Both the position numbers and the translations under genes were made by a program. Under the pieces are notes generated by a model, which did not search any database, was not told where the DNA came from, and saw only the letters and a list, made by a program, of their open reading frames with translations. Positions 9,839 through 28,718 of a stretch of 64,000 nt of DNA are shown in pieces; the stretch's first letter is position 1; each line of letters begins with the position of its first letter. This DNA comes from a virus: positions 64,001 through 128,000 of IMG/VR virus record IMGVR_UViG_3300045988_161114. One strand, 5' to 3'.

Positions 9839-12800
9839 TTAGTCAGTCGCTATCGAATATAGTATTCTAGCCTTTGTTGAGGCTTTTGTGTCTTTTGTAG
9901 CTCCCCACACTTTAGCTAAGCTTTCCCATGTGGTTTTAAGATTTTTAACCTGCAATTCTATAGGACTCAATTCATCATTCCATCCTAATAGTCCTGCTGT
10001 ATATTCTTGTCCATATACAGTCAAAGGCATCTTCATCAGCGCTCTGTGCCTCATGGTTATTCTTTCTTTGTTTGCTTCCCAAACATTTTTAAGAATACCC
10101 CATACTGCTATAACAACTGCTGCTACTACGATAGTTGCTGCTGCTGTTGCTATAAGTCCACCAGTACCAATACTGGCAGCAAGTCCAACAGTTCTGACAC
10201 CATTTATAACAGTTGCTATTGTTCTGCCTGCTGTAGCTACTCTTGCCCAGATTCCGCCTAGTGCGCCTTTCATTGAGGACAGTCCTCTAACTATAAAGCT
10301 AACCTTGCTGAATCTTGCCCAGCCTGATGCTACATGTCCTACTATAGGACCCCATAATGCAGTAGACACATAAGATGCCGCTGTTTTAAGTAACATTGCG
10401 GATGCTGCTGCAGCTGCTAATGATCCTGCTGTTGCCCATCCTACGTCCCAGAATCCTATTTTGGTTGGAGCTATGGATAATTTGCTATACATCTCTCCAG
10501 TAGGTGATGAGTTAACAGATACTAAAGCATATTCTCTTTGACCTTGTGCAAGCATCGAATAGAACATACCCAGCTTTATGTATAGTGATGAATATAAATG
10601 TGTTGCAGGTTCAACAAACATTCCTGGTGTAATTATTGTAATATATCCGTCGTCTTCAGTCAAGATATGTTGGACTTCCCTACACTTCATTACGCCGCTC
10701 ATTTGTCTTAATGAGTCAGAAATGTATGCATAATCACCTGGTGCTACATCTGGATTACCCGATATGATTACACTGCCTGTATACATCTTCTCAAGTTCTT
10801 CAAGGAGATATCCCTGGCCAGTTTTTATTGCCATGCCTTCTGTATTTAATGTACTATCAGTTAAATACGATGATTTAGTAAATGCAGGCATTAATCCGCC
10901 ATTAGATTTCATATCGAACATTTTGTTTTTACCAGTGCCAAAGTCACTTGGCTCTGTACCATATTCGACATTGGCTTGTGTTATCACATCCTGATTCAAT
11001 CTAAGCTGATTACTAATTATATTAGTTGCACTACTAAACATATGGAAGTTTGTAGCAGGAACCCATGCAGTAGAATCTATTGTTTTAGATCCCATTACTG
11101 AGCTTACTACATCAGCCACTTGTCCAGGATTGTCTTTTAGAACCTCAAATTTAGCTGTTGTTTCTCTTTGTCGTTTCTTTATGCCATCTGTGCTATTTAC
11201 CGGAATACCTAAGCTACCTTTTACATTTTTGGCATTTGCGGCTTCTTCTACTTCTTGAGCATGTTGGCTATCTTTATCTAACAGTCCTCCATTGATATTC
11301 TCAAATACCTCTGACGCAACAGAATGTGCAGTTTCATATCCTACCATAAGCTGTTCTTTAATACCTGTAAATATGGTGCATCTTGCACCTATATTTTTTA
11401 TAAGAGCCACTGATGATGGGAATAATCTTCTACCTGTTGTTATCACATCCCATACTGTTTTATTCAATACCGGGAAATTGACAAAGTAGTCGTTAAGAGA
11501 GAATGGGAATAGGTCATTCCATTCTGTAACAAAGAATCTGTCAACCATGTCAACATTCATCAGCCAGAAGTTTTCTAGATGATCTGTCGGACCTTTAAAA
11601 TCATAGAAGAAGAACTCACCTGAAGATGAATTCCATAAAGAATTTGATAACGAGAATCCGCTTTGACCAGATACACCCTGAGCAGCTGTACCAGATGAAT
11701 TTGTATCTACATCTTCACCAAGTATTTTAGGGTTGGCGCCAAAGTGCTGTAGTCTTGCGTTCTTAACTATTCTTGCAACTGCTGCTGATATGTACCTACC
11801 AGATGTATCACTAGCAAAAGTAGTAAATGGCAATACATCGCCGGCGAATATTAATTCGTTTTGTAGTTCTCTTCCATAACCCTCTGCAACTACTCTTACA
11901 ACATCTCCACCATCCGTTTCGGTTATAAGTCCGTTAAATACTACAGGAAGATCATCAATCTTATTGCCGTATCCCATTCTTATTTGAACTTTGTTACCGG
12001 CTTTAAGCCTTATTTGGTCCATTGCTACAACATTGGCGAAATCACTTCCTAAAGATGTTAAATCTAATTTAGTGTTGCCAAGTTTGTCTGCGGTATTGTA
12101 TCCAGTAGTAGGGTCTGTTGATGTATTCAAAGAGTTAAGAACTTCAAAGTATGCAACTGCAACAGGATTATCCTGATTGGCCATTTCTACACGAATATTT
12201 CGTACAGTTGATATTTCATAATATACCGCTTCAACACTTGTATTTATTAATTTAAATAAAGTGTTTTCATTATTGCCGTGTACTAGATATACCTTATATG
12301 TAGGGATAAGTTTTTCTAATCCCCATGTGTAATCTTTTACCATATTAGATATTCTAGCTTTACCTTGTAGATTAGGGTCCCAAGGTGTAGGGTCGGTATT
12401 AAATTCAACTGCTTCATTATTACGTTGTACTGCTACATTATCGTAATAGTTTGACGTATATCCAGCAGCGTCTCTGCTAAAAATACCAACACCGGCATTA
12501 CCTTTTGACACAGCGGCTGAGAGTGACATTGCAACTCTACCGTATTTTTGCCTAGATGTATTATTGCCATCTCTACTATCCTTACCTTGTAATGCTTTCC
12601 ATCCTGCACTATGTCCACCGTTGTGAGACATAGCTACTGCTAACACCTTATCTTGGAACGATAGTTTACTCCAACCAGGTTTAGCTGATAGATAATCTAT
12701 GTTTTTCTGAGTGTATAGCACAAATGCTTGATCTTGTAATTCTCTACTAGATATAAATGCTTTATATCCTCCAGGAATTGTCCAATATGAATCATTGTAT

Positions 12801-15800
12801 AGTGAAGATCTATTTCTTGGTGCTGTTTTTCTTATCCAGCCTATATCCATAAGTCCTTCTAGACCTATCTGATACATTCCTAGATATGATTCATTGCCAG
12901 ATGGATTTAGTCTTCCCCTTGACTCTATTGCTGCTATTGATCCTGCATAGCTTCTTAGAAGTGTACTATTTATAAGTGATGTACCTTTTTGACTTGTAAA
13001 GCCAGCACTAGATGCTGCTGCTATACCTTTCAGATCTCCACCGCCAAGACTGTAATCATTGAAGTCTGTAAATGGTTGATATCCGTTTGCAACAACAGAT
13101 TGCATAGCTGTAGATTCTTTTGGTAAAGCTATTCCGTCTTTTGCTTTAGGTTTCTCAAGTGTTCCTGGAGTTATACCCATACCTATTGCAGATTGACCAT
13201 TTGTTCCAGCTATTGCTGAACCAAGGTCTTCCCACCAGCTTTTCTTTTTACCTGATTCAGGAAGATTACTGCTAGGAGCACCTAACCCATTTATTGATCT
13301 ATGGAATGCTGCAGGGTCTACTGGTGTACCGTTTACATTTACTTGATAATGTAAATGTGGGCCTGTAGAATGACCAGTGCTACCACAGAATCCTATTAGC
13401 TGTCCAGCTATGACAGGTTGTCCTGGTTTAACTGCGAATGCGCTTAAGTGCATATACCATGTTGTTATACCACCAGCATGTTGAATGTAAACAGAATTAC
13501 CACCCCTTCCGCGATTAGATGCAACTGTTACTTTGCCAGTAGCTGCTGCATATATTGGAGTTCCAGTTGGACCTGCTAAGTCTATTCCGTGATGAAATCC
13601 TCCGCGTCTCATACCGAAAGGAGAAGATATTCGAACATGCTTCATTATTGATGACAAATCTTTTAGCCACAATCCTGATCCTGAACGAACACCCAGTTGG
13701 GCACCCTTAAGTGTACTTGATGTAAATTGTCCATTCACGCTATCTACACTGCCAGCAGAAACTGTACCATCTGGATTTATTGTTCCTGATGACGCAACGG
13801 CATTAACTTTTGTAAAGTTTCTTGTTCTGTCTGTACTGCTTCCCGGGCCATTAACCATCGCATTGGTATCTTCAAGTATTTCATCTATAAGTGGAGATGA
13901 TTGTTCCCACTTGGCCATTATCTTATCGCCATCAAATATTTGTTGGTCATATACAAATGGCAGGGCAGGTAAATCTTTCCATGAACTATATTCATCTGTT
14001 GAAGGAATGTCATGAAATATTTCTTTATATTTCATATCTGGGATTGCTTCACCAGAAAATGATGTACTGCTTCTATGAGTTTTATAATAACTCTTTTCTT
14101 TTTCCAAATCTTTTGATAAGGCATCAATAGTGTATTTATTGAAAGAGCTTCCAAGTGCACTTTTATATGCAGATGTAACTGCCTGTTCAAAATTTCTTAA
14201 ACGCTCTCTTAGAACTCTTTCCTCAGATGGAGTAGCTGAATGACTTTTTATAGCTTTAATATATTCTTTTATGAACATTGTAGATTTCTCTGTGTCTGTC
14301 ATATTAGAATATTTTTTACTTCTTAGCATAGGTTCTAAGAATAAGCCTACATCTGCGGTAGGGTCTTCCGCTTTCTTAACAGAAGAGTCTATATAAACTT
14401 TATATTCTTCAATAGCTTTAACTATTGGCTTGTTTATCTTATCAAGTACGTCTTTTAGTGCTGATGTATTTGCACCCTTTTTGTACTCTACGCTTGCCAT
14501 AGCAAGCAGATCTCTTATAGTCTCTGCTTGCGCTATTATGTCGTTGTAAGCTTCTTTGTTAGAGGCTTTTACAAATTTACTATTCTCAAGGAAGTCTGTT
14601 GAATCAGATTCTATAAACGAATAGTTATTTGTAATAACATTATTCATATTCCCAGTTGTAGAAGACTGAGATGAATCTATTATTACATATTTAACACCCA
14701 TTGCATTAACAATAGGGTTCTCTATTGCAATTACATCTAATCCTTTTAATGCTGGATATGTAACTCTTATATTTTTTGTAAATTCATCTACGCGGTCAAT
14801 AGCCATAGTAGCTGATGCCGCATCCATACCTTCTTCATGATTAGTTATAGTAGATATATTTATCTCTGTAGGAGAATGTCCTAAATATTGACAATAGGGA
14901 TAACTAAAATCCTGTATTGTTTGGTTTGCAAATCTATTTCTTCTTCTTATATTAATAGATTGTATTGCTATATTATCCTTATTTTTAGAAGAATTAGTGC
15001 CACCGATTAGTTCTCTTTTCCATCCTACATTTATTCTACCAGTCTCATCAAATCTAACTTCTTCATCTGATTTAACTTCTGATATGTTAGCATTGGTTTG
15101 TTGGCCATCTTTAGCATCTGTACCAGATAAGTCAACCTTTTTCAGAATTCTAAATGTTCTTGCCTCTTCCCAACATAAGTCATGAAGCTCTCTATGCAAT
15201 TTAATTGCGTCTGTAAAAACAATAGGGTATCCAAGATACAAATCGAAATCACGATTGTATCCCTGATTTATTATTTGTGTTTTATATTGATTTACATCTG
15301 ACCTGTAGAAGTCTACAAGTTTTTTCATTAAATTAGAATCACCAGGATTCAATTCATATTCAGTTTTGTATCTTTTAGAGCTTTTAGATTTTTTAGAGAT
15401 AGATTTAGAATTTGTTTTTGACTCAGCTTGCTGATTGAAAGATATGAATTTTATTGTTTTTGCTAGTGGCTTCCAGTTTATAGTTTGTAATCTTAATGAA
15501 ACAAAAGCCATACCTTGCATATTGTCTGATGCACCTAATTCAATTTCATATTCATGCAGTGCGTACATGAAGTATCCGTCACCAATACTTAATCCTAGCA
15601 TACTTAAGTCTGATGTACCCATAGCTTCACACCTTATGAACATATATGGGAATGACCTACATATAGATATAAGGTCACACATTTCTTCGACACTATCACT
15701 TTTAGACAAATCGAATGCGAAAGTCGCCAAATGTAGCGACTCCGCAAATCGAGATTTAGATGTCAATACAGATGTGTCCCTTAAGAACTCGTTTTGTGTT

Positions 15801-15880
15801 GTATAAAATTTATTAACTTTATCAACAGAAACTGGTTCTATATCCAATATTCCATTTATTGAAAAGGTAAATCTTGACAT
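9839..15880 (-). CDS. giant multidomain tail protein (2013 aa): M23 peptidase, lytic-transglycosylase-like domain, hub-like region and C-terminal hydrophobic bundle
   Basis: ATG start. Carries M23 motifs HHGID (H763/H764, D767) and HLH (H842, H844), and SLT-like AAIES (E986)...YLGMYQIG. A hub/gpD-like stretch reads KAGNKVQIRMGYGNKIDDLPVVFNGLITE. The last ~200 aa contain several Ala/Gly-rich hydrophobic segments (e.g. GLIATAAATIVVAAVVIAVWGIL). Confidence 0.85.
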   Translation of the reverse strand: MSRFTFSINGILDIEPVSVDKVNKFYTTQNEFLRDTSVLTSKSRFAESLHLATFAFDLSKSDSVEEMCDLISICRSFPYMFIRCEAMGTSDLSMLGLSIGDGYFMYALHEYEIELGASDNMQGMAFVSLRLQTINWKPLAKTIKFISFNQQAESKTNSKSISKKSKSSKRYKTEYELNPGDSNLMKKLVDFYRSDVNQYKTQIINQGYNRDFDLYLGYPIVFTDAIKLHRELHDLCWEEARTFRILKKVDLSGTDAKDGQQTNANISEVKSDEEVRFDETGRINVGWKRELIGGTNSSKNKDNIAIQSINIRRRNRFANQTIQDFSYPYCQYLGHSPTEINISTITNHEEGMDAASATMAIDRVDEFTKNIRVTYPALKGLDVIAIENPIVNAMGVKYVIIDSSQSSTTGNMNNVITNNYSFIESDSTDFLENSKFVKASNKEAYNDIIAQAETIRDLLAMASVEYKKGANTSALKDVLDKINKPIVKAIEEYKVYIDSSVKKAEDPTADVGLFLEPMLRSKKYSNMTDTEKSTMFIKEYIKAIKSHSATPSEERVLRERLRNFEQAVTSAYKSALGSSFNKYTIDALSKDLEKEKSYYKTHRSSTSFSGEAIPDMKYKEIFHDIPSTDEYSSWKDLPALPFVYDQQIFDGDKIMAKWEQSSPLIDEILEDTNAMVNGPGSSTDRTRNFTKVNAVASSGTINPDGTVSAGSVDSVNGQFTSSTLKGAQLGVRSGSGLWLKDLSSIMKHVRISSPFGMRRGGFHHGIDLAGPTGTPIYAAATGKVTVASNRGRGGNSVYIQHAGGITTWYMHLSAFAVKPGQPVIAGQLIGFCGSTGHSTGPHLHYQVNVNGTPVDPAAFHRSINGLGAPSSNLPESGKKKSWWEDLGSAIAGTNGQSAIGMGITPGTLEKPKAKDGIALPKESTAMQSVVANGYQPFTDFNDYSLGGGDLKGIAAASSAGFTSQKGTSLINSTLLRSYAGSIAAIESRGRLNPSGNESYLGMYQIGLEGLMDIGWIRKTAPRNRSSLYNDSYWTIPGGYKAFISSRELQDQAFVLYTQKNIDYLSAKPGWSKLSFQDKVLAVAMSHNGGHSAGWKALQGKDSRDGNNTSRQKYGRVAMSLSAAVSKGNAGVGIFSRDAAGYTSNYYDNVAVQRNNEAVEFNTDPTPWDPNLQGKARISNMVKDYTWGLEKLIPTYKVYLVHGNNENTLFKLINTSVEAVYYEISTVRNIRVEMANQDNPVAVAYFEVLNSLNTSTDPTTGYNTADKLGNTKLDLTSLGSDFANVVAMDQIRLKAGNKVQIRMGYGNKIDDLPVVFNGLITETDGGDVVRVVAEGYGRELQNELIFAGDVLPFTTFASDTSGRYISAAVARIVKNARLQHFGANPKILGEDVDTNSSGTAAQGVSGQSGFSLSNSLWNSSSGEFFFYDFKGPTDHLENFWLMNVDMVDRFFVTEWNDLFPFSLNDYFVNFPVLNKTVWDVITTGRRLFPSSVALIKNIGARCTIFTGIKEQLMVGYETAHSVASEVFENINGGLLDKDSQHAQEVEEAANAKNVKGSLGIPVNSTDGIKKRQRETTAKFEVLKDNPGQVADVVSSVMGSKTIDSTAWVPATNFHMFSSATNIISNQLRLNQDVITQANVEYGTEPSDFGTGKNKMFDMKSNGGLMPAFTKSSYLTDSTLNTEGMAIKTGQGYLLEELEKMYTGSVIISGNPDVAPGDYAYISDSLRQMSGVMKCREVQHILTEDDGYITIITPGMFVEPATHLYSSLYIKLGMFYSMLAQGQREYALVSVNSSPTGEMYSKLSIAPTKIGFWDVGWATAGSLAAAAASAMLLKTAASYVSTALWGPIVGHVASGWARFSKVSFIVRGLSSMKGALGGIWARVATAGRTIATVINGVRTVGLAASIGTGGLIATAAATIVVAAVVIAVWGILKNVWEANKERITMRHRALMKMPLTVYGQEYTAGLLGWNDELSPIELQVKNLKTTWESLAKVWGATKDTKASTKARILYSIATD
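12551..12973 (-). other. SLT / lysozyme-like glycosidase domain within the 2013-aa protein
   Basis: GSIAAIESRGRLNPSGNESYLGMYQIG has a catalytic-Glu-Ser plus G-x-(M)-Q arrangement typical of lytic transglycosylases. The GAG codon for E986 was verified at 12923-12925. Confidence 0.65.
13313..13648 (-). other. peptidase M23 (LytM-type) domain within the 2013-aa protein
   Basis: SSPFGMRRGGFHHGIDLAGPTGTPIYAAATGKVTV...GFCGSTGHSTGPHLHYQVNVNGTPVDP carries the canonical HxxxD and HxH zinc ligands. Coordinates were checked against the DNA (CAT CAC at 13589-13594). Confidence 0.9.
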
Positions 15881-15889
15881 TTGTTATTC

Positions 15890-18800
15890 CTAATAATTTT
15901 GATTCTGGAACCTTATTGTACTTCTTGATGCAGAATCTCCTTGAAGCATACTTCTTAATGACTGCTTCAATCTGTCGTTACTTCTATTATCTATTTGATA
16001 TCCGGCAACTGATACAGATTGTGCTTGTGCGCCATCTGTTATGTATGCAGAATTATTTTCTATTACTGGTAATGTTGGATTTGTTCTAGCAGTAGGAGAA
16101 TTATACATAGGAGATGTTGTGGTTGGAGATTCGGCCCCAACAGTTAAACCTACTATACCTAAACCAAGTCCGCCTAAGAGTATTGATTTCTTATTAGCTT
16201 TTATAGTTGAAATAATTTGATTTCCTATATCAGTAGCAGTATCAATAGTAGCATTAGTTGCCGCTTTTGACAATACTTCTTCACTAAGATTAACCTCTCT
16301 AGCTGTTGATTTTGGTATTCTTGGTATAGCAGCTTCAATCTTATCTGCTTCTTTCCCAGAGTATTTTGAACCAACCATGTTAGGACTATTTATAGTTATA
16401 TCTGCGCCATGTGTTGAAACAGCATCACCTATAAATTTACCTATATCTACAAATTCATCAGCACCAGTAAATATTTCAGGGATAACATTTTTAACCCATT
16501 CTCCTATTTCGTCATATGAGGCAAATCTGCTTTTACCTGCAGACTCTCTCATAGATGCAATAGTTTCAAGAAGTGAGTTTGCATTTGAACCAGATCGTAC
16601 AGTTTTAAGTACGTTCTCTTGCATGGCACCAGCTACAGCCTGTGCCATAAGTGCCCTTTTATTTATAGATTCTTCTATAAGTTTTCTAGACGGATCGCTT
16701 ACACCTAATGCCTTTACGGCATCTGACAAATCTGATCCTCTTTTTCTTTCTATTGCTTGAGATAGAAGTTGTTGAAATTCCGTTATCTCTGCGGCACTAA
16801 ACTTACGTTGTTGAGATTTAACCTGCTTCAAGATATTCTCTTGAAACTGATCTTCTGCTACAGTTTTTGCTCCAGACTTTAATGGGTTCACTACACCATA
16901 TTGTTCCATCTCGGCCATTTTGGTATTAAATGTTTTTAAGAAATTCTTTTCATTTACAAATATATTATTTTGTAACGACATCAAATCTCTTAACTCTTTA
17001 TTAACCTTGTTATTATTAAGATCGTCTGCTCTGAATACGTGAATCTTGTCATCATCAAGGTCGCCGGATGCTGATGCCAATTGGTTTTCACCCATAGCAA
17101 TTACTGTGCCTTTTTGTTTTATGGATGGATCAACAAAGAACGTTACAGCTTGTGCGCTAAGTGAGCTAGATGCAGGAGTACGTATTGCCAACCCTAGACT
17201 ATCTTTAATAGCATATGGTGTTTTTGATTTACGATTAAGTTTGAAACCAAGCGACCTTGCAGTCTCTTCATTTATGAATACCGCATTACGTCCAGCTTTT
17301 TCTTCCTGTGCTCGTATTATCTCTGCGGCCCCTGTTAATGATACAGCAGTAGCAGTTACACCATTTCTTGCAGTTCTTCTTGTAGCAGCTTTTGCAATGG
17401 TTGTATTAGTAGATTTTAATTTAGATTTAAGCTCTTCAAGATCTGTTAAATAAGATTGTTTCGCTATATCTATATATCTACTATTTTCACCATCTCTCAT
17501 AGCCCTCTGATATTCCATCATTGAAACCAAAACATTACGCTTCAACTTGTCTGTTTCCGCCATGATGTCAGAACCATGAATATCTTTAATACCGCTATTA
17601 TCGCTGTTCAGTAGGTTTATAGATAATGACCTTAAACCTATTTTCTTAGATGACATACCTTCTGGAACTATGAGTTTTACAGATGCAACACCATCATTAT
17701 TGATCATATCTTTAAGATGTTTTGCTGCAAACTCTTCCCTATCTTTTGCTTCAAATAAGGCTCTTATAGATTTAGGATCATCGCCGAATATAGAATCAAT
17801 AGACTGCCCATCAACTATGTTTTGTAGTTTTCTTGACCTTAGTTCGTATCTTGAATCTTCATTAGCTTCCCCTATTAATTCTAATGAATCTATTGATACA
17901 CCTGCTGCCTTTAATTGGTCTGCTGCCATCCAGTCCATAGTTGCTTTTGATGTATTTGCACCAGTAAGTTCCCTAGTACCTTCTTGTAGCACACCGAAAG
18001 AACTTAGTCCTAATGCTGTCATGTTCTTTTTTCGCATTGTTTCATATATATTGGCAAAATCATCTTGTAGTGATTTAAACATATCTTCTGGACTTATTCG
18101 TCCATTCGAATAGTCGATCATTCTTGATGAAGACTGCTCTATGTATTTTGCTAGGCCTTTTTCTATATTATTCGGATCAATATGAATATCTCCGCCAGCA
18201 AGATTCAGTGTTATAGGAGAATTGGCCTGTGAGCCAACTTTACTTATCATATCTATCATTGTTGCCATTGCTGTCTGAGATGATTTACCATCAGACATTG
18301 CATTATTGGCAAATGCGGCACCAATAATTTTAGATTGATTAACGTCACTAATCTTACCTGACGCATCTATTTCTTTTTTGATTCTGACAAATTCTCTACC
18401 GGCAGGACTTATTCTCCCATCTGAATCCAGTTCTGTATTGTCAACTATTCTGTTGACTATATTTTTAAGGCTAACCTGGTCTGGGCTATATCTATATTTT
18501 CTGATAGCTCTATCTATTTCTGTTATATCAGAACCTATTTTAGTATCAGAACTTCTAACCATCCATTGAGATGTGAAATTGATACCAGAGTTTCTTTCTA
18601 GATATTCCCTTATCTTTGTGGCATTTTTGTCATCGGAGTTTGCTACAAGACTTAAAAGTCTTTTAAAGTATTTTTTGGTCCCCTCTCCATAGCTTTGAAG
18701 TTCCTCATCTGATGCCATTAGACCAGTTACAAGTGCATGGAAATTTGCCTTGCCTATTTTAGCCATTTTATTTATAGAGAATTTTAGGCCATTGGTTTTA

Positions 18801-20884
18801 TCAGCAGACACTAATCCTAATTCAGACATAGCATATCCATACATAGCATTTTTGTATGAATGCTTATCTAGAATTATTGCATTCGATTTCAAGTCTCCAA
18901 ACAATTTGACAATATTATCATCATTATTTGATAGAGAAGATGTTCCTGCTCCAATTAACTTGTATTTACCGCCTGAATTTACAGCACCAGATAGCTCTAC
19001 AGTTTCAAAATGTCTTGGTGCTCTAATCTCTTCTCCATTAGAGAATCCTATAAGCTCTCCACCTTTGAATGATACTGGGCCTTCATTAGTGCCATTTATA
19101 AGAGATTGTATTTTTTCAGTAGCATCACTAGCAGCTATAAAGTCTTTGCCGCCAAGTGTTACTGTAGTGGCTTTCTTAACAGTGTAATCTGACTCTTGTA
19201 TTATTGATTGACCATCGCCTATAGCTGTGCCTGTAACCCAGCTTCCTAAGCTATAGTTATAATCATATCCTACAGCATTAAATCCTATATTTTTAACGCC
19301 ATTAAATGATGACGTATCTACTCCATTTTTAGATAGTTCCATAACAGCTTTGCTTAGATTATCTTCTCCTCCTGATGTAGAAATATTACCACGTGAAGCA
19401 TATGTTGCATCACGGTCAGGAGATGATACTATACCAGTATATACAGAGTTATTATTGTCACCCATGAATACCTTTGCCTGATCAGAATGTCGTATATTGT
19501 TGAATCCAGGATTTAGACCGTTTCTAAGTCTATCAAGCTCTATGTTTTCTACAATATTTTTATACTCTTCGGCGTTGATATTCTTTATACCTCTTATTTC
19601 TCCAGTCCTATCGTCCCTATAAAATTGCTCACTTATATTTGTAAGTTTATTTTTTATAGGCATATCAGATATATTGACAAGATCTGTTTTAGGTCCTACA
19701 TATTCTATTCTGTCAGAGAATTTTTTAGATACTTCATTAAGAGGTTTATTAGTATTGAGGTGCTCAAACAGCATTGACTCTACAGGAGTAAATGCTTGTG
19801 ATTTTACTTCTTGTGCAGATGTAGAAAATGGTCCACTAGTATTAGTGTATATATTCCCTTTTACTTTTGTGCCATCACCAAGCAATTGAAATTGATTATA
19901 AGATTCGGCAGAGTATATATTGCCGCCTTTTGATACAAATTTGGAGCCATCTTTACTGTACTCTTCCATATGCAGAGAGCCAGTAACACCATCTTTAGTG
20001 ATACTTATTTTACTATCTTCAAAGCTTATCTTGCTGTTTTCTGTATTATTGCCTATATTAGATGCTATTCTAAATGCATCTATTTCTGGATAATTCAGCT
20101 CTTTTACGAGATACTCTTTTATTGCACTGGTCTTCTGTTCAGATGTAGCACTAATATTTAAATCTAATGATTTACCTCTATTAAAGTTTGTTTCTGGAAC
20201 ACTAGACAAATTTAACTTCTGTAAGTTTGAAGTAGGGATAAGTAATCCTGTTTCTGCGTCTACTACACCTGTTATTGCATTAGGCATCGATGAACTTAGC
20301 AGCGCAGATAATATGTTTTTATCTTTTACGTGGGCCGGAAGCGACTGTTTTATTTGCTCAAGATTCTTATTGTTAAGCCATGAATCAAATATATTATTAA
20401 ATAGGTCTTCGCCTAAAACAGATGATATATCTTGTCCATATATCATAGAGAAGTTTCTTTTAACAGCCTCTTTATATGATTGCATACCCTTCTGGGTTAA
20501 TTTATGCATTTCAGACAACGCCACTTGAGCTTCTCTGCTGCTAGTATTGTTACCAAATCTACCTATATTTAAAGATGCATAAGCTTGTGAACTTAGATTC
20601 ATATGCATCTCTTTTGCATTTCTAGCAAACTTCTCAGTAAACCTGTTTGCTGCCCTTCTGGATAATCCTCTGTATCCAGAAAGGTCAGCTTTATTAAATG
20701 CTATATCGTCAGCTATTTCTCTTTTCGCTCTAGAGATTCTTTTAGATATTTGAAGAGAATTGCCAACATAAGCACCTATGCCCATACCTAATGCTGCTGC
20801 TATAGGATGGTCTTCTGGGTCTTGAGACATTGCGCCTAATATTGCTCCGCCTATCATAAGTTTAGGTTGTTTAATTGGATCCAT
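15890..20884 (-). CDS. giant tail-module protein (1664 aa) containing an RNA-polymerase-like double-psi beta-barrel with a DxDxD loop
   Basis: ATG start. Hydrophobic Gly/Ala segments occur at both termini (MIGGAILGAM..., ...SILLGGLGLGIVGLTVGA). Residues 1169-1284 align motif by motif with the beta-prime catalytic DPBB (see the sub-feature and findings). Confidence 0.6.
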   Translation of the reverse strand: MDPIKQPKLMIGGAILGAMSQDPEDHPIAAALGMGIGAYVGNSLQISKRISRAKREIADDIAFNKADLSGYRGLSRRAANRFTEKFARNAKEMHMNLSSQAYASLNIGRFGNNTSSREAQVALSEMHKLTQKGMQSYKEAVKRNFSMIYGQDISSVLGEDLFNNIFDSWLNNKNLEQIKQSLPAHVKDKNILSALLSSSMPNAITGVVDAETGLLIPTSNLQKLNLSSVPETNFNRGKSLDLNISATSEQKTSAIKEYLVKELNYPEIDAFRIASNIGNNTENSKISFEDSKISITKDGVTGSLHMEEYSKDGSKFVSKGGNIYSAESYNQFQLLGDGTKVKGNIYTNTSGPFSTSAQEVKSQAFTPVESMLFEHLNTNKPLNEVSKKFSDRIEYVGPKTDLVNISDMPIKNKLTNISEQFYRDDRTGEIRGIKNINAEEYKNIVENIELDRLRNGLNPGFNNIRHSDQAKVFMGDNNNSVYTGIVSSPDRDATYASRGNISTSGGEDNLSKAVMELSKNGVDTSSFNGVKNIGFNAVGYDYNYSLGSWVTGTAIGDGQSIIQESDYTVKKATTVTLGGKDFIAASDATEKIQSLINGTNEGPVSFKGGELIGFSNGEEIRAPRHFETVELSGAVNSGGKYKLIGAGTSSLSNNDDNIVKLFGDLKSNAIILDKHSYKNAMYGYAMSELGLVSADKTNGLKFSINKMAKIGKANFHALVTGLMASDEELQSYGEGTKKYFKRLLSLVANSDDKNATKIREYLERNSGINFTSQWMVRSSDTKIGSDITEIDRAIRKYRYSPDQVSLKNIVNRIVDNTELDSDGRISPAGREFVRIKKEIDASGKISDVNQSKIIGAAFANNAMSDGKSSQTAMATMIDMISKVGSQANSPITLNLAGGDIHIDPNNIEKGLAKYIEQSSSRMIDYSNGRISPEDMFKSLQDDFANIYETMRKKNMTALGLSSFGVLQEGTRELTGANTSKATMDWMAADQLKAAGVSIDSLELIGEANEDSRYELRSRKLQNIVDGQSIDSIFGDDPKSIRALFEAKDREEFAAKHLKDMINNDGVASVKLIVPEGMSSKKIGLRSLSINLLNSDNSGIKDIHGSDIMAETDKLKRNVLVSMMEYQRAMRDGENSRYIDIAKQSYLTDLEELKSKLKSTNTTIAKAATRRTARNGVTATAVSLTGAAEIIRAQEEKAGRNAVFINEETARSLGFKLNRKSKTPYAIKDSLGLAIRTPASSSLSAQAVTFFVDPSIKQKGTVIAMGENQLASASGDLDDDKIHVFRADDLNNNKVNKELRDLMSLQNNIFVNEKNFLKTFNTKMAEMEQYGVVNPLKSGAKTVAEDQFQENILKQVKSQQRKFSAAEITEFQQLLSQAIERKRGSDLSDAVKALGVSDPSRKLIEESINKRALMAQAVAGAMQENVLKTVRSGSNANSLLETIASMRESAGKSRFASYDEIGEWVKNVIPEIFTGADEFVDIGKFIGDAVSTHGADITINSPNMVGSKYSGKEADKIEAAIPRIPKSTAREVNLSEEVLSKAATNATIDTATDIGNQIISTIKANKKSILLGGLGLGIVGLTVGAESPTTTSPMYNSPTARTNPTLPVIENNSAYITDGAQAQSVSVAGYQIDNRSNDRLKQSLRSMLQGDSASRSTIRFQNQNY
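17030..17380 (-). other. beta-prime-type DPBB-like segment with the metal-binding loop D1275-L-D1277-D-D1279
   Basis: Four motifs align with E. coli beta-prime. RRTARNGVTATAVSL (1169-1183) matches KRVDYSGRSVITVGP. NAVFINEETARSLGF (1200-1214) matches HQCGLPKKMALELF. RTPASSSLSAQAVTFFV (1235-1251) matches RAPTLHRLGIQAFEPVL, and also yeast Rpb1 RQPSLHKMSMMAHRVKV. ASASGDLDDDKIHVF (1270-1284) matches AAYNADFDGDQMAVHV. The DLDDD codons were verified at 17048-17062. Confidence 0.55.
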
Positions 20885-20889
20885 TTTTA

Positions 20890-23800
20890 TTACCTATTAT
20901 ATATAGTCATATCGAAATCACCATGACCACTATTGCTTATATTGACATTTACTGCTCTTACGCCATTACGATATAGTTCATCTTTTATCATATTCACAGC
21001 ATCAAACCTTTGTTGGGCCTTAGTTCTTCTAATAGATTTAAGCTGAGTTGTAACCTGATCTTCTGCAAGTATTGCTGATTGTCTTTTTAGATCGTCTTGG
21101 TCATCTTCGTAATAACCAAATTCTATGGCATTCTCACCACCTATATTTAATGTTCTAAGTTTTATATCTTTGACATTTAATCTAGGGTCCCATCCTGCAA
21201 ACTTCTCATCAGGCATTCCTGTTGCATCGACTATTAATTGCTCTGCTCTTCTTTCTTGTAGGTATTCTCTAAATGATATACCTATGTCGGCATCGCCACT
21301 TCTTTTATATGCACCATAAACTTGTGAGTTATTTTGTATAAGTTGCTGCTCTTCATCTTGTAGATATTCTGAGACATCTCCGCCGGATTCAATTACATCT
21401 TTACGGCTCCACAACATCTTGTACATTTCTGATACATTGTTTCCATCAACAATAGCAGCAATACGTTGTCTATCAGAGTCCTTTGCATTTACAAATGATG
21501 TAAAATACTGTTTCTCTTCGCTGGATAATCCCATATATGCAGAACTTACATCTTTTTCGGTATCAAGTCCTGATGCCAATGCACCGTATGTAGTCTTGTA
21601 AGCTTTTGCCTTTGCCTGATTCGCTATAAATAAATTGCCTTTAACATTTTCTCTATAAACTTTCATTTGTTTATAGTATTCCAATGCTTCAAAGTAATTA
21701 TCTATATTACGTTTTTCTTGTGTATGCTCTGGTATATATGATTTATCAAATGATTTATAGCTTTCCTCAAAGAATGGTCTTATGAAATGTTTAAATGGTT
21801 CATTCCATAATGCTGTATCAGAAGCTATTAACTGAGTTTTCTCGTAATCTTCTATAGCTGTTCTTTGGTGTAGTAACTTACCGGCAGGTCTGAAGAATGT
21901 TAATCTCTCTGTCGGTAGTTCTGCATTATGAGTTATTGTTTCCCATAACTTACCAAGAACCTCTCCACCAACAGATACATTATCAAAATCTTCATCAGTC
22001 TTATACTCTGCAAATGTTTTCTTTTGCGCTCTTCTTTGTAACTGATCCCAAGTATTCTCGAATATTCTTTTCTCGGACTCTGTCATTTCACCAGAGTTAT
22101 ATCTAGACTCCATTAACTCTTTTGCATTGTAGAATTCACTTGAGCCGTATGCTACATCTGATAGAACTTTAAATTTATGTATATCAGGATATTCTTCTAA
22201 ACTCAATCCTGCAACTTCTGGATTGTAATGTTCATATCCTGCACCTGGCATTCTATCATAGCCAAGTTCTACATTTGCGTAGTAGTTACCTTTTGAGAAA
22301 TCTGTGTAATATTCTCCTCTGGGAAGCCAAGATGGAGCAACACTGTTATGTAAAGGATTTGCTCTATCATACAATACACTAGATGACATTGGAACTATAC
22401 GACGCAGTATATCCGCTGCGCCAAATAAACCACCAAGGTTTTGTTCAGTAAATTCTCTTGCAAAGTTTGTTGATTCACCTGACCTTGCTAACTGGTTCTT
22501 TTGAGAAAAATCGCCTACAGCAAAATCACTTAGCACACCAGATACTGCCCATCCTTTAAGACCTATAAAGTCTGATGCAGAGTTATAGATATATTGTGCT
22601 GATTCTGCATATGGAGAGTATGTAAGGTTCTTACGCCCAGTAATCATTTTGTCATTTATCAATGACTGTTCTACATTTGAATAGTTTACTGGAACTTCAA
22701 AACTTGGTTTTCTTGTTATATCTCCAAAATTATATGCAAATGCATATGAGTTCTCATCACTAACATAGTAGTCCTGTGGTACTGACTGAAGATTTTCCAT
22801 CAGCTGAGCCATGTTAGGATTTATTCTATCTGGTTTAATTATTTGACCTATTGTACGTTCAAATATTTTACCGGCCCAACCACCTACTGATACGTCCATA
22901 CCCCATATTGGATATGGCATATCATCTTGGTGCATTTCTTCAAATCTATATGGATTTTGTAAATAATCTATTGGATTAAGGAATGGATTTAGGTCTTCTT
23001 TGGTGTCTCCATCGCCATAAAGAATTTTATCTTTATTGCCTGCAATTAATCTTTGATACCAGTTCTTAGTGAAGTATTTTACACCGCCACCCTCTATATC
23101 CGTAGACCCAGAGAACCATAATGCATTTGATCTTTGTTCAACATCTTCACCGTATAGATATCTGTCTTTTAACGAATCTGATGATTCACCAGCTAAAGCA
23201 CCAGGAAGAAATGGTAATGCTAATGCTAGTCCAGCTAGTGCACCTCTCATTGCCCATTTTTTAGTATTAGCTATTCTGCCTAATGATGATCCTATCGGCG
23301 TATTACTTACAAGCTTAGATACGCTAGAGTTTATAACATCACCCTCTGCATGAGCAACCCTTTGTCCAGCTTTATATCCATCATCTGACAACACAGATGG
23401 AACTACACGTTTACTGTAAGCTACAGTACCGGCAAGCATTGCTCCTGCTAATGGGAATCCAGCTAGTCTTAGTAACGATGTTGAACCAGGGGCTACATAT
23501 TCTTGTTGAGTTGTATACTCTTCAAACCTATCAGATACTGTTTCTGCATATGCTATTCTAGCATTTACTGCTGTTGTTGCTACACCTTCTAATATACCCT
23601 GGTCATATCCGCTTCCACTTGTACCGATTACTTTAGCCATATTATCCAGTGTATAATATGCTGCACCAAGTATACCAAGTTTTACTGCACCATGTTTAAC
23701 ATATCCAACTGCCAAGTCTGATATTTTCATATCAGCATTTGCATGTCTATTTATTCTTCCATATTTATTTATAAATCTAAATATACCATTATTTTCATTA

Positions 23801-24711
23801 AACAGTGTTCCGCCAAGTTCTTGAACGAATCCTAATGGCTCGTTGACCATATTGAAGCCTTGAGCTATACCTTGTCCTATTACAGATTTAATCCATCCCT
23901 TATTTATATTAGCGTCTTTTGCATCTGCAATTATTGTAAATGGAGCTTCTGTATCAAGAATATTTTTAGACAATTCAAATATTTCTTTTCTAGAAGAAAA
24001 GCTCATATCCTGCTGATGTATAATATGTCTTCTTAGTATTTTATTATACATTGAACTTTGAGCATGGCCATTTGTATGACCTGTCCATTCTGATGTAACA
24101 AGTCTTGCATTGCTTATTACTTCTTCATCACTAGAAGAAAATAATTTACCATCTCTGTATAACAGCCCGGTAGATATGTCCGCCGATGTTATACCTCTGT
24201 TGCCATATTTATGTGCTAATTCTTCAAAATATTTCTTTTGATGTTTTAATAGTTCAGGAGTGAAGAAATGCTCACCATTTTGAGTTGCAAATGGCTGCAT
24301 TATATGAGAAGTCTGGAATGTTCTTAAAATAGAAAAAGGGGAGAGTTCCTCAAACGCCCTAGCAGTGTTCATTGCTAAGTTTGTTAAGGTGACTCTCCCG
24401 CCGTATGATCGGATAGCATCATCTGCTGTTCCATTAATTGATTCAGATAAATAACTTAGAGTTATGTAATCTCTAATTTTATTTTGTGCGCTTTGCCTTT
24501 TTAGTATCTCTTTTACCGTAAATAATGCACCTGCTGATAATCCATACTTTGTTATAGAGCCTATTATTTCTTTTGTAGCCTGTATCTCTTCATATGTATT
24601 TACATCATCTGATGTATACATATTATATGGGGATTTAACATCCCCTGGTTGTATTCCCTTATCAAATACTTTTTGGCCAAAAATATTTGCAGCTAGATTT
24701 TGTACTGACAT
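20890..24711 (-). CDS. giant tail-module protein (1273 aa), tape-measure / ejected-protein candidate
   Basis: ATG start. First gene after the chaperone-slot genes. Has an internal hydrophobic Gly/Ala segment (GALAGLALALPFLPGALAG). No enzymatic motif recognised. Confidence 0.6.
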   Translation of the reverse strand: MSVQNLAANIFGQKVFDKGIQPGDVKSPYNMYTSDDVNTYEEIQATKEIIGSITKYGLSAGALFTVKEILKRQSAQNKIRDYITLSYLSESINGTADDAIRSYGGRVTLTNLAMNTARAFEELSPFSILRTFQTSHIMQPFATQNGEHFFTPELLKHQKKYFEELAHKYGNRGITSADISTGLLYRDGKLFSSSDEEVISNARLVTSEWTGHTNGHAQSSMYNKILRRHIIHQQDMSFSSRKEIFELSKNILDTEAPFTIIADAKDANINKGWIKSVIGQGIAQGFNMVNEPLGFVQELGGTLFNENNGIFRFINKYGRINRHANADMKISDLAVGYVKHGAVKLGILGAAYYTLDNMAKVIGTSGSGYDQGILEGVATTAVNARIAYAETVSDRFEEYTTQQEYVAPGSTSLLRLAGFPLAGAMLAGTVAYSKRVVPSVLSDDGYKAGQRVAHAEGDVINSSVSKLVSNTPIGSSLGRIANTKKWAMRGALAGLALALPFLPGALAGESSDSLKDRYLYGEDVEQRSNALWFSGSTDIEGGGVKYFTKNWYQRLIAGNKDKILYGDGDTKEDLNPFLNPIDYLQNPYRFEEMHQDDMPYPIWGMDVSVGGWAGKIFERTIGQIIKPDRINPNMAQLMENLQSVPQDYYVSDENSYAFAYNFGDITRKPSFEVPVNYSNVEQSLINDKMITGRKNLTYSPYAESAQYIYNSASDFIGLKGWAVSGVLSDFAVGDFSQKNQLARSGESTNFAREFTEQNLGGLFGAADILRRIVPMSSSVLYDRANPLHNSVAPSWLPRGEYYTDFSKGNYYANVELGYDRMPGAGYEHYNPEVAGLSLEEYPDIHKFKVLSDVAYGSSEFYNAKELMESRYNSGEMTESEKRIFENTWDQLQRRAQKKTFAEYKTDEDFDNVSVGGEVLGKLWETITHNAELPTERLTFFRPAGKLLHQRTAIEDYEKTQLIASDTALWNEPFKHFIRPFFEESYKSFDKSYIPEHTQEKRNIDNYFEALEYYKQMKVYRENVKGNLFIANQAKAKAYKTTYGALASGLDTEKDVSSAYMGLSSEEKQYFTSFVNAKDSDRQRIAAIVDGNNVSEMYKMLWSRKDVIESGGDVSEYLQDEEQQLIQNNSQVYGAYKRSGDADIGISFREYLQERRAEQLIVDATGMPDEKFAGWDPRLNVKDIKLRTLNIGGENAIEFGYYEDDQDDLKRQSAILAEDQVTTQLKSIRRTKAQQRFDAVNMIKDELYRNGVRAVNVNISNSGHGDFDMTIYNR

Positions 24712-24713: not shown

Positions 24714-25244
24714 TTACACCGGAGGAACATTATTCTGTGGTTCTTCTATATTTATTTCTTTTATATGCTCTGGATATGTTGCATGACATATAGCATATAA
24801 TTCAAATAATTTATTTACTGGAAGTTCTACAACTTCTAAGTATGGAGTGTGCATATATCTAGAAACTATTGCAGCCATTTGGTCTAGTAGAGTTACCGAC
24901 TCCCTGTCTCTTTCAAATGCCTTTTGTGGATCTTGTGCATATTCTAATGACTTAGATAATATTACACTAGATACAGTTGTTATGAATCCTGCAGGTGCCT
25001 CATCGAAGTTTACATCTCCTACTATTCCTGGAATGGAGATATAGCATTCTCTGAATATATCTTCGTATAGCTCTTCTCTTACATAGCCTTTTTCTAGATC
25101 CATTCTCAGTATTCTCTGTATCTCTACAGAATTAAGTAGTCTAGCTATTACTATAAGATTTCTATAAATATATCCGCCCAATTCTATATCAGTATCATTA
25201 AATGGAATTATTATACTTCCAGATTTGACACCTATTGCATTCAT
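24714..25244 (-). CDS. hypothetical protein in the tail-assembly-chaperone slot (176 aa)
   Basis: ATG start. Lies between the tube genes and the giant ORFs. The functional call is by position only. Confidence 0.45.
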   Translation of the reverse strand: MNAIGVKSGSIIIPFNDTDIELGGYIYRNLIVIARLLNSVEIQRILRMDLEKGYVREELYEDIFRECYISIPGIVGDVNFDEAPAGFITTVSSVILSKSLEYAQDPQKAFERDRESVTLLDQMAAIVSRYMHTPYLEVVELPVNKLFELYAICHATYPEHIKEINIEEPQNNVPPV

Positions 25245-25245
25245 A

Positions 25246-25740
25246 TTAAATTACCTTTATTTGACTTAAAGCTAATGATTCAGGTACAAATGAAGATTTG
25301 TACATTATCTGCTCTTTTAATGATGATACAACACCAGCACTTGATGTTGCCATAAATTTTTCATCTGGCTTAGGGTACAACAGACATTTCTTAACTATTG
25401 CCTCTTCGCCACGAAGTGCTTCGTTTAAGAATCCGCTTTTCATAAGCTGTTTATATTCTTGTCGTCTTAATGTACGCCATAAATATAAATCTGATTCATT
25501 TAGAATAGTTGATATATGAATTACGCCATATTGTGCTTTCCAGTTTTCGATATCTGCTTCTGTTGGAGCATTTTCAAGATTAGCTAATGTCTTAACTATT
25601 AAAGACATTTCCGACTCTTCTTGTACCTCTTTGTCTTTTTCTTCTTCTAGACGTTGAGATATTTCTATTGCCTCTTCAACAGTAAGGTCATCTTCTGGTA
25701 GCGTGCTTAATCCTTTTACTTCTTCTACTGTTAATGCCAT
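25246..25740 (-). CDS. hypothetical acidic protein in the tail-assembly-chaperone slot (164 aa)
   Basis: ATG start. Acidic N-terminus (EEEKDKEVQEESE). The functional call is by position only. Confidence 0.45.
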   Translation of the reverse strand: MALTVEEVKGLSTLPEDDLTVEEAIEISQRLEEEKDKEVQEESEMSLIVKTLANLENAPTEADIENWKAQYGVIHISTILNESDLYLWRTLRRQEYKQLMKSGFLNEALRGEEAIVKKCLLYPKPDEKFMATSSAGVVSSLKEQIMYKSSFVPESLALSQIKVI

Positions 25741-25741
25741 T

Positions 25742-26566
25742 TTATCCTCTTACTTCTTTTGCTATGAATCTGTAGCCATCAACTAATTGACCATCGCTAC
25801 CTATATCGACACTGGTTTCAAACCCTATTATTCTTATTTCTTGTATATCAACATATTGTCTTACGCCAGACATAGTTGGGTCACCATTATTATAAGAAAT
25901 TGTGATATTAAAAGTGTCAAGGTCGGCCCAGTCTAATACCGACTTATTGGAAACTTTACCAATTTCCATTGCCGTCTCTTTCTCTTTGTATACTCTTAAT
26001 TCTTCTGATGTAAGCTGCATTTGTTCATATGGTGTAAGTCTTCTGAACTCAGAGGTTTTATTTATATTGTCTAATACTCTTGGCAAATAGTCTTTATTGC
26101 ACTTGTTTATTGATATAAAACCAGTTACCATATTGTTTCCTCTTGATAGGAAACTATATCTAGAATTACCTATAGTATATATTGGTACACTAGATAGTGA
26201 CTCATTTATGCCTATGCCGGAAACCTTATCAAGCCATATATCTTCTATGTATATCATACAATCGCTTGACGAGTAATATTTATTATATAGTCCATTTACA
26301 AATCCATGTCCCTGCAAAGGCCTTTTGCCTTTTACATTAACTTCTTTTAATTGAACATAGTCTATAGGATTTGCTCTTGAACCTTTGTTTGCATTATTAG
26401 ACGCATTTACGGCTCTTGCTGTAGCCTTTGGACTGGCTCCACTACTTGTTTCACCAGTCCCTGAATTTACGGTAGTTAATGATACACTTCCATCTCTATT
26501 TTCAGACGCATAAACTGTATCTACAGTTCCATCATCTCTGTCTACGACTGCTGTTATTGTACTCAT
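25742..26566 (-). CDS. tail tube paralogue 3 (274 aa) with a low-complexity N-terminal extension
   Basis: SVPIYTIGNSRYSFLSRGNNMVTGFISIN aligns with tube APVFTMGSPDAKAIARGKRYVSGACIFTV. The C-terminal ...YRFIAKEV aligns with tube ...MSFIAKRV. Confidence 0.55.
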   Translation of the reverse strand: MSTITAVVDRDDGTVDTVYASENRDGSVSLTTVNSGTGETSSGASPKATARAVNASNNANKGSRANPIDYVQLKEVNVKGKRPLQGHGFVNGLYNKYYSSSDCMIYIEDIWLDKVSGIGINESLSSVPIYTIGNSRYSFLSRGNNMVTGFISINKCNKDYLPRVLDNINKTSEFRRLTPYEQMQLTSEELRVYKEKETAMEIGKVSNKSVLDWADLDTFNITISYNNGDPTMSGVRQYVDIQEIRIIGFETSVDIGSDGQLVDGYRFIAKEVRG

Positions 26567-26569
26567 TTA

Positions 26570-27967: not shown

Positions 27968-27994
27968 ATGTGGCTCCGAAAGGATTAGTAGTTA

Positions 27995-28669: not shown

Positions 28670-28688
28670 AATTTTATCCTGATTGTTA

Positions 28689-28710: not shown

Positions 28711-28718
28711 ATTCTTTA

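Follow-up and report, generated by a model that had tools for sequence, protein, structure and literature searches.

A giant protein of 1664 amino acids (aa) is encoded in the tail gene block of a phage known from a 64,000-nucleotide stretch of viral DNA (positions 64,001 to 128,000 of IMG/VR record IMGVR_UViG_3300045988_161114; this whole stretch is referred to as the window). Its open reading frame (ORF) starts with ATG and occupies positions 15890-20884 of the minus strand, and the ORF reported in a preliminary description of this DNA was confirmed, and assigned to that strand, by the ORF list and the translation. With a probability of roughly 60%, the product is a giant tail-associated virion protein in which the central ~900 residues (approximately aa 500-1420) make up a two-barrel RNA polymerase (RNAP) in a single chain. 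Conserved residues and the predicted fold lend good support to a β'-type catalytic barrel within such a polymerase, and by analogy it is probable that the tail serves the phage to inject a polymerase of its own.

Polymerase-type motifs and their invariance

The preliminary description had quoted four peptides as counterparts of the conserved strands and loops of the catalytic double-psi β-barrel in the RNAP largest subunit. All four were located at aa 1169-1284 as claimed (window 17033-17380, minus strand): RRTARNGVTATAVSL (aa 1169-1183, window 17336-17380), NAVFINEETARSLGF (aa 1200-1214, window 17243-17287), RTPASSSLSAQAVTFFV (aa 1235-1251, window 17132-17182), and ASASGDLDDDKIHVF (aa 1270-1284, window 17033-17077). 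The Escherichia coli β' strings with which they had been compared, KRVDYSGRSVITVGP, HQCGLPKKMALELF, NRAPTLHRLGIQAFEPVL, and AAYNADFDGDQMAVHV, are accurate according to rpoC of MG1655. DLDDD at aa 1275-1279 is the sole DxDxD within the 1664 residues and lies ~35-40 residues downstream of an R-x-P motif, R1235-x-P1237, which on sequence grounds is the counterpart of NRAPT in β' and ARSPA in QDE-1. A sub-profile of the protein family, built as a hidden Markov model (HMM), aligns on DFDGD of E. coli RpoC, P23-45 gp96, and 0305phi8-36 gp99.

To delineate this family, 1.84 billion cluster representatives were searched exhaustively by HMMER with aa 465-1664 as query, and 13 proteins were retrieved. 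Eleven of them comprise 1625-2037 residues, one of these being near-identical to the window protein. A further member is gp036 of the Acinetobacter jumbo myophage ME3, a homologue by position and, weakly, by sequence (BLASTP E=3e-6, 20% identity, alignment beginning at aa 961); the BLASTP alignment pairs IRTPASSSLSAQ with SREPAQGTMSSQ and SGDLDDDKIHVF with GGDHDQDQAAVL. Each full-length member and ME3 gp036 possess one DxDxD in the same column, as exemplified among the homologues by NADFDGDM, GDFDGDA, MDYDGDQ, and GDLDGDK.

Conservation of the R-x-P and DxDxD positions among homologues had been proposed as a check, and both proved invariant in an alignment of 12 sequences that share 16-30% identity with the window protein. 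The 33 invariant columns (of 1664) include R1235, P1237, D1275, D1277, and D1279, together with D557, G558, K660, and K666 upstream. Because the five downstream residues are invariant at this level of identity, the β'-like motif match exceeds chance, as judged from the alignment. Eight residues are invariant across all two-barrel polymerases, namely three aspartates, R446, and P448 in Rpb1 and D837, K979, and K987 in Rpb2 (Ruprich-Robert and Thuriaux, 2010; PMC2919709). The family appears to match this universal set of eight in β-then-β' order and with comparable spacing, the three upstream residues being putative equivalents: D557-G558 is proposed to correspond to Rpb2 D837 and to the "DGQG" motif of RNA-dependent RNA polymerases (RdRP), and K660 and K666 are proposed to correspond to the basic residues of the β-like barrel, Rpb2 K979/K987. 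The gene and its segments are arranged as follows.

15890..20884, minus strand: whole gene, encoding a 1664-aa giant in the tape-measure slot with an RNA-polymerase-like core in its centre (ORF list, translation, HMMER family, ME3 gp036)
20747..20857, minus strand: hydrophobic glycine-zipper hairpin at the N-terminus, aa 10-46 (hydropathy maximum at aa 28-46, block conservation 0.59, Pfam matches)
18779..19294, minus strand: candidate first (β/Rpb2-like) barrel region, aa 531-702 (strands in AlphaFold2 models; Foldseek match to chain B of the African swine fever virus (ASFV) RNAP, E=0.047)
19211..19216, minus strand: invariant D557-G558, GDGQ motif (invariant in alignments)
18887..18907, minus strand: invariant K660 and K666, VKLFGDxKS (invariant in alignments; loop of low confidence in the models)
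17381..18778, minus strand: connector between the two barrels, mostly helical, aa 703-1168 (AlphaFold2 secondary structure; invariant columns K867, W985, Y1013, S1086, G1098, and K1165)
17027..17380, minus strand: predicted catalytic β'-type double-psi β-barrel, aa 1169-1286 (AlphaFold2 with DSSP, Foldseek)
17174..17182, minus strand: invariant R1235-x-P1237, REPAxGP in the family (12-sequence alignment; hmmsearch alignment to QDE-1)
17048..17062, minus strand: invariant D1275-x-D1277-x-D1279, putative Mg-binding triad (sole DxDxD in each full-length homologue)
16625..17011, minus strand: helical stretch following the barrel, aa 1292-1420, with a GQxRKFxAPxxTE motif and invariant T1368 (AlphaFold2, conservation)
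16124..16192, minus strand: C-terminal transmembrane-like segment, aa 1565-1587 (hydropathy 1.62 over KKSILLGGLGLGIVGLTVGAESP; kept in the family consensus)
15893..16123, minus strand: conserved C-terminal tail, aa 1588-1664 (block conservation 0.5-0.56)

Predicted fold of the core

An AlphaFold2 model of aa 480-1420, computed with a 13-sequence alignment, reached a mean predicted local distance difference test (pLDDT) score of 69 and a predicted template modeling (pTM) score of 0.47, with pLDDT values of ~70-84 in the barrel region. In this model, aa 1175-1285 adopt a six-strand double-psi topology, with strands assigned by DSSP at 1175-1182, 1201-1204, 1224-1234, 1244-1251, 1261-1264, and 1279-1285 and short helices at 1206-1211 and 1266-1271. 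The order of strands and helices agrees with that of the E. coli β' barrel, which runs RSVITVGP, QCGLP, KKMALELF, VLLNRAPT, IQAFEPVL, IQLHP, LVCAAY, NADFDGD, and QMAVHV. Since the modeled order is the same, all four matches of the preliminary description fall on equivalent elements of the E. coli barrel. Downstream of the barrel, long helices and a disordered loop (aa 1328-1366) were predicted, and it is possible that the helices of aa 1292-1420 and the GQxRKFxAPxxTE motif represent the equivalent of the bridge helix and trigger loop.

The whole aa 480-1420 model was compared by Foldseek with 350,542 PDB chains, the matches being scored without aligned ranges. All top 50 matches were RNAP largest subunits (probability 0.72-1.00), the best being the β'-like chain of the AR9 non-virion RNAP (7s00_d; E=1.1e-3, probability 1.00), and the others included mycobacterial, Taq (Thermus), and Staphylococcus aureus β', the plastid-encoded polymerase, and Rpb1 of Pol II. 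Among the predicted viral structures of BFVD, ME3 gp036 and two giant proteins of tail type matched best, ahead of nudivirus LEF-9, RPB1 homologues of giant viruses, and the crAss-like protein cr130_1 (E=0.046, probability 0.38). The predicted fold thus resembles RNAP largest subunits, albeit with low TM-scores and a model of medium confidence.

Double-psi barrels also occur in lytic transglycosylases. A peptidoglycan-cleaving barrel of the RlpA, MltA, or expansin type would be in line with the frequent presence of wall hydrolases in tape measures and with the M23 or SLT domains of the adjoining hub. This explanation is hardly credible here and was rejected: neither the top 50 Foldseek matches of aa 480-1420 nor the Pfam matches include a lytic transglycosylase or expansin, the combination of R-x-P and DxDGD is a polymerase-specific signature, and wall hydrolysis is already supplied by the next gene.

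The model of aa 480-1420 consists of two β-rich domains and packed helices, unlike the extended-helical canonical tape measure. This bears on the suggestion that the protein is an ordinary tape measure whose β'-like motifs are a coincidence or a dead relic serving as structural spacer. The suggestion draws on a weak Pfam match to Tape_meas_lam_C (E=0.039, aa 697-725), on the annotation of the corresponding slot of phage 0305phi8-36 as tape measure, and on the fact that no curated family threshold was passed. It is very improbable and was rejected, as eight catalytic-type residues are invariant at 16-30% identity with one DxDxD per protein, the core is predicted to be globular with β-barrels rather than an extended helix, and the Foldseek matches are uniform.

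The candidate second, β-type barrel (aa 531-702) is β-rich in the AlphaFold2 models (pLDDT ~45-88), with a possible β-sandwich insertion that separates the acidic from the lysine motif. A separate model of aa 500-730 is likewise β-rich (pLDDT 62, with values below 50 in the K660-K666 loop); its best Foldseek match, chain B (Rpb2-like) of the ASFV RNAP, is insignificant (E=0.047, probability 0.57), and further weak matches concern the sandwich-barrel insert of Thermus β'. The first-barrel sub-profile retrieved no polymerase from the PDB sequences. In the gp99/YonO-like family of 0305phi8-36, D229-G230-Q231-G232 and R293...K298-G299 (RFGFxKG) are invariant, and these DGQG and RFGFxKG motifs resemble GDGQ and KLFGDxKS of the window family. 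Of the single-chain two-barrel RNAP suggested in the preliminary description, the catalytic barrel is thus backed by invariance and fold, whereas the case for the second barrel consists of D557, K660, and K666. Similarly, the structural search for two facing double-psi barrels that it had proposed yielded the β'-type barrel, with RNAPs as the top 50 matches, and left the second one unproven.

Relationship to known polymerase families

When all PDB sequences were searched with the family profile (hmmsearch), QDE-1 entries alone were matched, at E ~1, with an alignment covering ARSPAHFPSD...GGDYDGDMAWV. Within the Pfam library of 24,736 families, the best match to the HMM consensus of the catalytic segment was RdRP (PF05183; E=8.9e-4), where the segment aligned with model positions 387-466 and scored 18.5 bits against a cut-off of 23.8 bits. 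Pfam searches with the single sequence and with all 12 members found no RNAP family, and PHROG and Pfam scans of the window turned up no other RNAP. The profile searches proposed in the preliminary description thus produced weak, sub-threshold links to QDE-1 and PF05183 and no significant RNAP match. Relatives of the protein are equally scarce: tblastn found no match in 50,697 phage genomes, a single-sequence query recovered no relative from 185,579 GTDB genomes, and a word-indexed search of 5.8 billion proteins yielded three near-identical proteins only, regardless of whether the single sequence or the 12-sequence alignment was used.

RNAP families commonly lack significant mutual similarity outside the DxDxD region (Chaban et al., 2024; Nat Commun 15:317; PMC10770324). 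Membership of the window family in the two-barrel superfamily would accordingly be carried by motifs and predicted fold, without significant sequence homology.

The tail module and its conserved gene order

The window is the structural gene arm of a large tailed phage; nearly all of its genes lie on the minus strand, and its 64 kb contain no tRNA genes. PHROG and Pfam searches identified a terminase, a portal, a major capsid protein, a tail sheath, a tail tube, and a baseplate wedge subunit, and the 748-aa sheath together with the wedge subunit bears out the contractile-tail (myovirus) module recognized earlier. The genes surrounding the polymerase candidate are the following.

24714..30965, minus strand: upstream tail module, including three small chaperone-position genes (PHROG, SNase, collinearity)
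28719-30965, minus strand: tail sheath (phrog_16991, E=4.8e-69)
27995-28669, minus strand: tail tube (PHROG tube-like matches)
26570-27967, minus strand: tube paralogue fused to SNase, 465 aa (phrog_9206 in the N-terminal part; Pfam SNase E=5e-14, aa 335-445)
20890..24711, minus strand: upstream giant neighbor, 1273 aa (BLASTP, tblastn)
9839..15880, minus strand: downstream giant neighbor, 2013 aa, a baseplate hub with M23 peptidase (Pfam Peptidase_M23, E=1.9e-33)

According to the tail sheath, the closest cultured relative is Acinetobacter phage vB_AbaM_ME3; Bacillus phages belonging to the 0305phi8-36 group come next. The genes follow the same order as ME3 gp029-037 and 0305phi8-36 ORF139-147, and this synteny is established: sheath, tube, tube paralogue, chaperone-position genes, a virion protein of ~1270-1930 aa, a second giant, and a gp27-like hub with wall hydrolases. 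The 1664-aa protein is the second giant, the corresponding slot of 0305phi8-36 being ORF146, whose record describes a hypothetical tape measure that was detected in virions by mass spectrometry; tape-measure function was assigned to gp146 by Hardies et al. (2007; PMC2147016). In four distant metagenomic relatives and in ME3, the gene lies directly upstream of the M23/SLT hub giant, and a ~1290-aa protein precedes it in the two metagenomic contigs that reach far enough upstream. The two flanking giant ORFs of the preliminary description exist, with 1273 and 2013 aa. It had further placed the gene between the tube/chaperone genes and the hub; the hub does adjoin, whereas the chaperone-like genes are separated from the gene by the 1273-aa protein.

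This 1273-aa neighbor shows 32% identity to ME3 gp035 over 1230 aa (BLASTP) and a tblastn match to 0305phi8-36 ORF145 (gp145), a virion protein by mass spectrometry according to its record. It is far better conserved than the 1664-aa protein (32% vs. 20% identity to ME3) and contains Gly/Ala-rich hydrophobic segments at ~aa 400-510 and no known domain. The 2013-aa hub is homologous to ME3 gp037, annotated as homologue of the 0305phi8-36 hub gp147 with a T4 gp27 domain. Its M23 domain lies at aa 762-856, and it has a central block and the last ~400 residues in common with ME3 gp037. In relatives, the hub gene is split into M23 and SLT proteins (locus L012) or also carries an SNase domain (L016). 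The tube-SNase fusion occurs at the same position in distant relatives (L011 and L012), pointing to a nuclease that is borne on the tail tube or inside it.

Proteins occupying the equivalent slot in other lineages differ. The HMM does not assign 0305phi8-36 gp146 and gp145 or the slot proteins of Moorella phage MTATph1 and Bacillus phage vB_BceM_WH1 to the window family. gp146 (L007:16973-24586) contains a DnaQ-type ExoI motif, YLDIETTGL, at aa 1223. The Moorella slot protein (CDS27, L013:16166-20095) has a Pfam RNase_T match (E=5.4e-5) and can be aligned to gp146 aa 1495-1816 (E=7e-11). In 0305phi8-36 and the Moorella phage, this slot may deliver a DEDD exonuclease. WH1 gp095 (L014:16374-23921), a 2515-aa giant in the tape-measure slot of another lineage, shows TNRYPTIN followed, after 38 residues, by KADHDGD (~aa 1955-2001), a weak Pfam RNA_pol_Rpb1_2 match (E=0.09), and an alignment of the barrel sub-HMM with aa 1885-2004; it may contain a second, independently placed polymerase module. 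Searches by tblastn with the YonO-like gp99 found no match in ME3 or WH1. Because gp99 has no tblastn match in these two phages and the slot proteins differ, it is conceivable that different nucleic-acid enzymes alternate among the slot giants of this supergroup and that tail-borne and free polymerases are complementary, although few genomes are concerned.

Such variability is also relevant to the idea of a tape-measure or ejection protein with an RNAP-derived two-barrel module whose job is other than early-gene transcription, for instance as DNA translocation motor, in primer synthesis, in RNA copying, or as PolD-like DNA polymerase. The closest sequence signals point to the QDE-1/RdRP clade, in which both RNA and DNA templates are used, the DEDD exonucleases of sister-lineage slot proteins suggest a slot that may deliver assorted nucleic-acid enzymes, and polymerase-assisted injection has already been considered for gp99 (Hardies et al., 2007). 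The studied phage virion two-barrel enzymes named by Chaban et al. (2024), however, transcribe early or pre-early genes, and no PolD chain is found among the top 50 Foldseek matches. Such a different job is regarded as rather unlikely, and transcription of early genes would be the preferred function.

Two further ORFs of the window deserve mention. A 462-aa ORF at 56776-58164 (minus strand) contains an intein at aa 131-288 (Intein_splicing E=5e-15, Hint E=4e-7). Just beyond the terminase, a 557-aa ORF at 54688-56361 (minus strand) shows a weak RNase_T match (E=0.005) and a weak match to the PHROG family "DNA polymerase exonuclease subunit."

Several points weigh against a tail-borne two-barrel RNAP. 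In the sequence comparisons, the 1664-aa protein found no match in PHROGs, Pfam, or PDB sequences as a single sequence, and none of the sequence methods reached a curated threshold (18.5 vs. 23.8 bits for RdRP; E ~1 for QDE-1). Alignments by hhalign were confined to the DxDGD motif for P23-45 gp96 (21 columns, probability 0.4%), to the DxDGD loop for 0305phi8-36 gp99 (probability <2%), and to the DxDGDK motif for a 19-sequence gp99 family (E 0.03-0.16, probability <2%). As regards structure, no Foldseek PDB match was below E=1e-3 and TM-scores were 0.1-0.3, modest values that are to be expected from the multidomain, medium-confidence nature of the model; the latter was built on 13 sequences, and its DxDxD loop and K660-K666 loop have pLDDT values below 50. 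The second barrel is no more than likely, judging from the conserved residues. With respect to the slot, 0305phi8-36 gp146 has no DxDxD; since it occupies the same position, the slot does not imply a polymerase. The 1273-aa neighbor might itself be the true tape measure and set the tail length, or it might act as another ejection protein. Finally, a folded polymerase of ~100 kDa is hard to fit in the lumen of a tail tube, and in matters of packaging and tail location the window phage is known from its genes alone.

Conserved termini and a possible route of delivery

Hydrophobic Gly/Ala segments had been reported for both termini of the protein, and they are indeed found at aa 28-46 and 1565-1587. 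Conservation within the family is highest in the first 50 residues, followed by the last ~110 residues, and in 3 of 12 members the Pfam glycine-zipper 2TM family Rick_17kDa_Anti was matched (best E=9e-5). The C-terminal tail (aa 1588-1664) is likely to be a docking element for the hub or tail tip. Taken together, conserved termini and slot give the pattern of a tail-lumen or ejection protein, which would be packaged in the virion. Delivery with the virion and early transcription are plausible on the basis of synteny and of the analogy with P23-45 gp96.

It is conceivable, in contrast, that a genuine RNAP is not delivered with the virion, its gene lying in the tail block by chance, or that it is packaged in the head instead of the tail. 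The window phage and ME3 gp036 are known from genes alone, a folded polymerase is poorly suited to a tail tube, and the crAss-like virion polymerase is likewise encoded within a giant protein (Chaban et al., 2024). Yet the position between two virion giants is strictly conserved, the conserved hydrophobic termini are typical of ejection and tape-measure proteins, and the slot protein gp146 of 0305phi8-36 is present in virions (mass spectrometry). Moreover, the gene belongs to a late structural operon, and an enzyme made late and needed at the start of infection must ride in the particle. Both variants are therefore regarded as unlikely.

Starting from delivery through the tail, we infer catalytic activity, template, packaging, tail location, and timing according to a mechanism modeled on P23-45 gp96. 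In the tape-measure slot of a jumbo myovirus of the 0305phi8-36/ME3 type, the gene would encode a polymerase flanked by the glycine-zipper hairpin on its N-terminal side and by the transmembrane segment and tail on its C-terminal side. The N-terminal β-like barrel would supply the acidic D557 and the lysines K660 and K666, and the β'-like barrel (aa 1169-1286) would supply R1235/P1237 and the Mg-binding D1275/D1277/D1279. Stored in or at the lumen or hub of the tail, the protein would be expelled by sheath contraction, whereupon its termini would become inserted in the envelope conduit or docked to it. There, the polymerase would transcribe the first genes on the entering DNA with no need for the host enzyme, and it might help to draw the DNA in.

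Comparison with known systems

The list of phage two-barrel polymerases in the preliminary description was incomplete, as it omitted gp96 of the Thermus siphophage P23-45, a tape measure of 5002 residues with an N-terminal two-barrel virion RNAP (Chaban et al., 2024). This RNAP was found via its DxDxD, its crystal structure was solved, and it transcribes pre-early genes; its flat, clamp-less shape was proposed to permit passage through the tail (Chaban et al., 2024). Like gp96, the window protein is a giant in the tape-measure slot with a (predicted) single-chain two-barrel RNAP and a DxDGD loop; in both proteins, the polymerase escapes sequence searches and is recognized by its motif. The two also have in common membrane segments, an M23-type peptidase nearby, and the proposed transcription of the first genes at an envelope conduit. 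However, P23-45 is a siphovirus, whereas the window phage is contractile-tailed and of jumbo type. In gp96, the RNAP takes up the first 1200 of the 5002 residues and shares its chain with the peptidase; in the window protein, the RNAP-like core is central in 1664 residues and M23 is found in the adjoining gene. Activity and structure are experimental for gp96 and predicted for the window protein, and there is no significant sequence relationship between them. Within the preferred reading, the window protein is a sequence-orphan variant of this known tape-measure-polymerase strategy.

The clade of QDE-1, eukaryotic RdRP, and YonO-like proteins (PF05183, including 0305phi8-36 gp99) comprises the sole families reached by sequence profiles. 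Its members are single chains with the β-like barrel ahead of the β'-like one, as proposed for the window protein. Unlike the latter, YonO and gp99 are free-standing proteins of ~800-1200 aa that are encoded outside the structural module and have no hydrophobic termini. The window family remains outside PF05183, as it scores below the cut-off and its hhalign comparison with gp99 is insignificant.

Another two-barrel polymerase within a giant virion protein encoded among tail genes is the crAss-like phage virion RNAP (phi14:2 gp66), which is ejected into the host (summarized in Chaban et al., 2024). It originates from a podovirus, unlike the window protein, and only a weak structural match to a crAss-like protein was seen. 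Jumbo myophages of the phiKZ/AR9 type likewise deliver their own two-barrel polymerase, and AR9 β' tops the Foldseek matches. Their RNAPs are split into 4-5 subunits, one of two copies being packaged in the virion (PMC7824862); they are nearer to bacterial β/β' and encoded outside the tape-measure slot, in contrast to the single chain in the tail module of the window phage. 0305phi8-36 gp146 is similar in its position between a gp145-like giant and a gp27-like hub and in being a giant, fast-evolving virion component, but differs from the window family by having no DxDxD, no detectable similarity, and a DnaQ-type exonuclease motif instead.

For 0305phi8-36, the jumbo-phage survey of Iyer et al. 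has the YonO-like gp99 as its only entry. A literature search found no description of such a module in ME3-like or any other contractile-tailed phages, in agreement with the preliminary description, which knew of none in the tail-lumen slot of a contractile-tailed phage. What is new is thus the setting in a contractile-tailed jumbo phage and a family without significant match to known polymerase families. As a tentative extension, for which the odds are somewhat unfavorable, contractile jumbo phages including ME3 may share an unrecognized, sequence-orphan family of single-chain two-barrel RNAPs that double as tail-lumen proteins. In this extension, the slot giants of the supergroup would be interchangeable injectors of an RNAP (ME3 and window phage), of the NRYPT...ADHDGD module (WH1), or of a DEDD exonuclease (0305phi8-36 and Moorella phage), with a tail RNAP occurring where free gp99 is absent.

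If confirmed, the window protein would extend the strategy of fusing a polymerase to a tape measure, so far seen in one Thermus siphophage lineage, to contractile-tailed jumbo phages. The two-barrel RNAPs, enzymes that inform reasoning on the origin of cellular transcription, would at the same time gain a new and highly divergent family. It also raises the physical problem of how a polymerase core of ~100 kDa sits in or travels through a myovirus tail. As ME3 is in culture and infects Acinetobacter baumannii, the idea is directly testable, and its confirmation would explain how transcription starts in ME3-like phages, which have no annotated RNAP.

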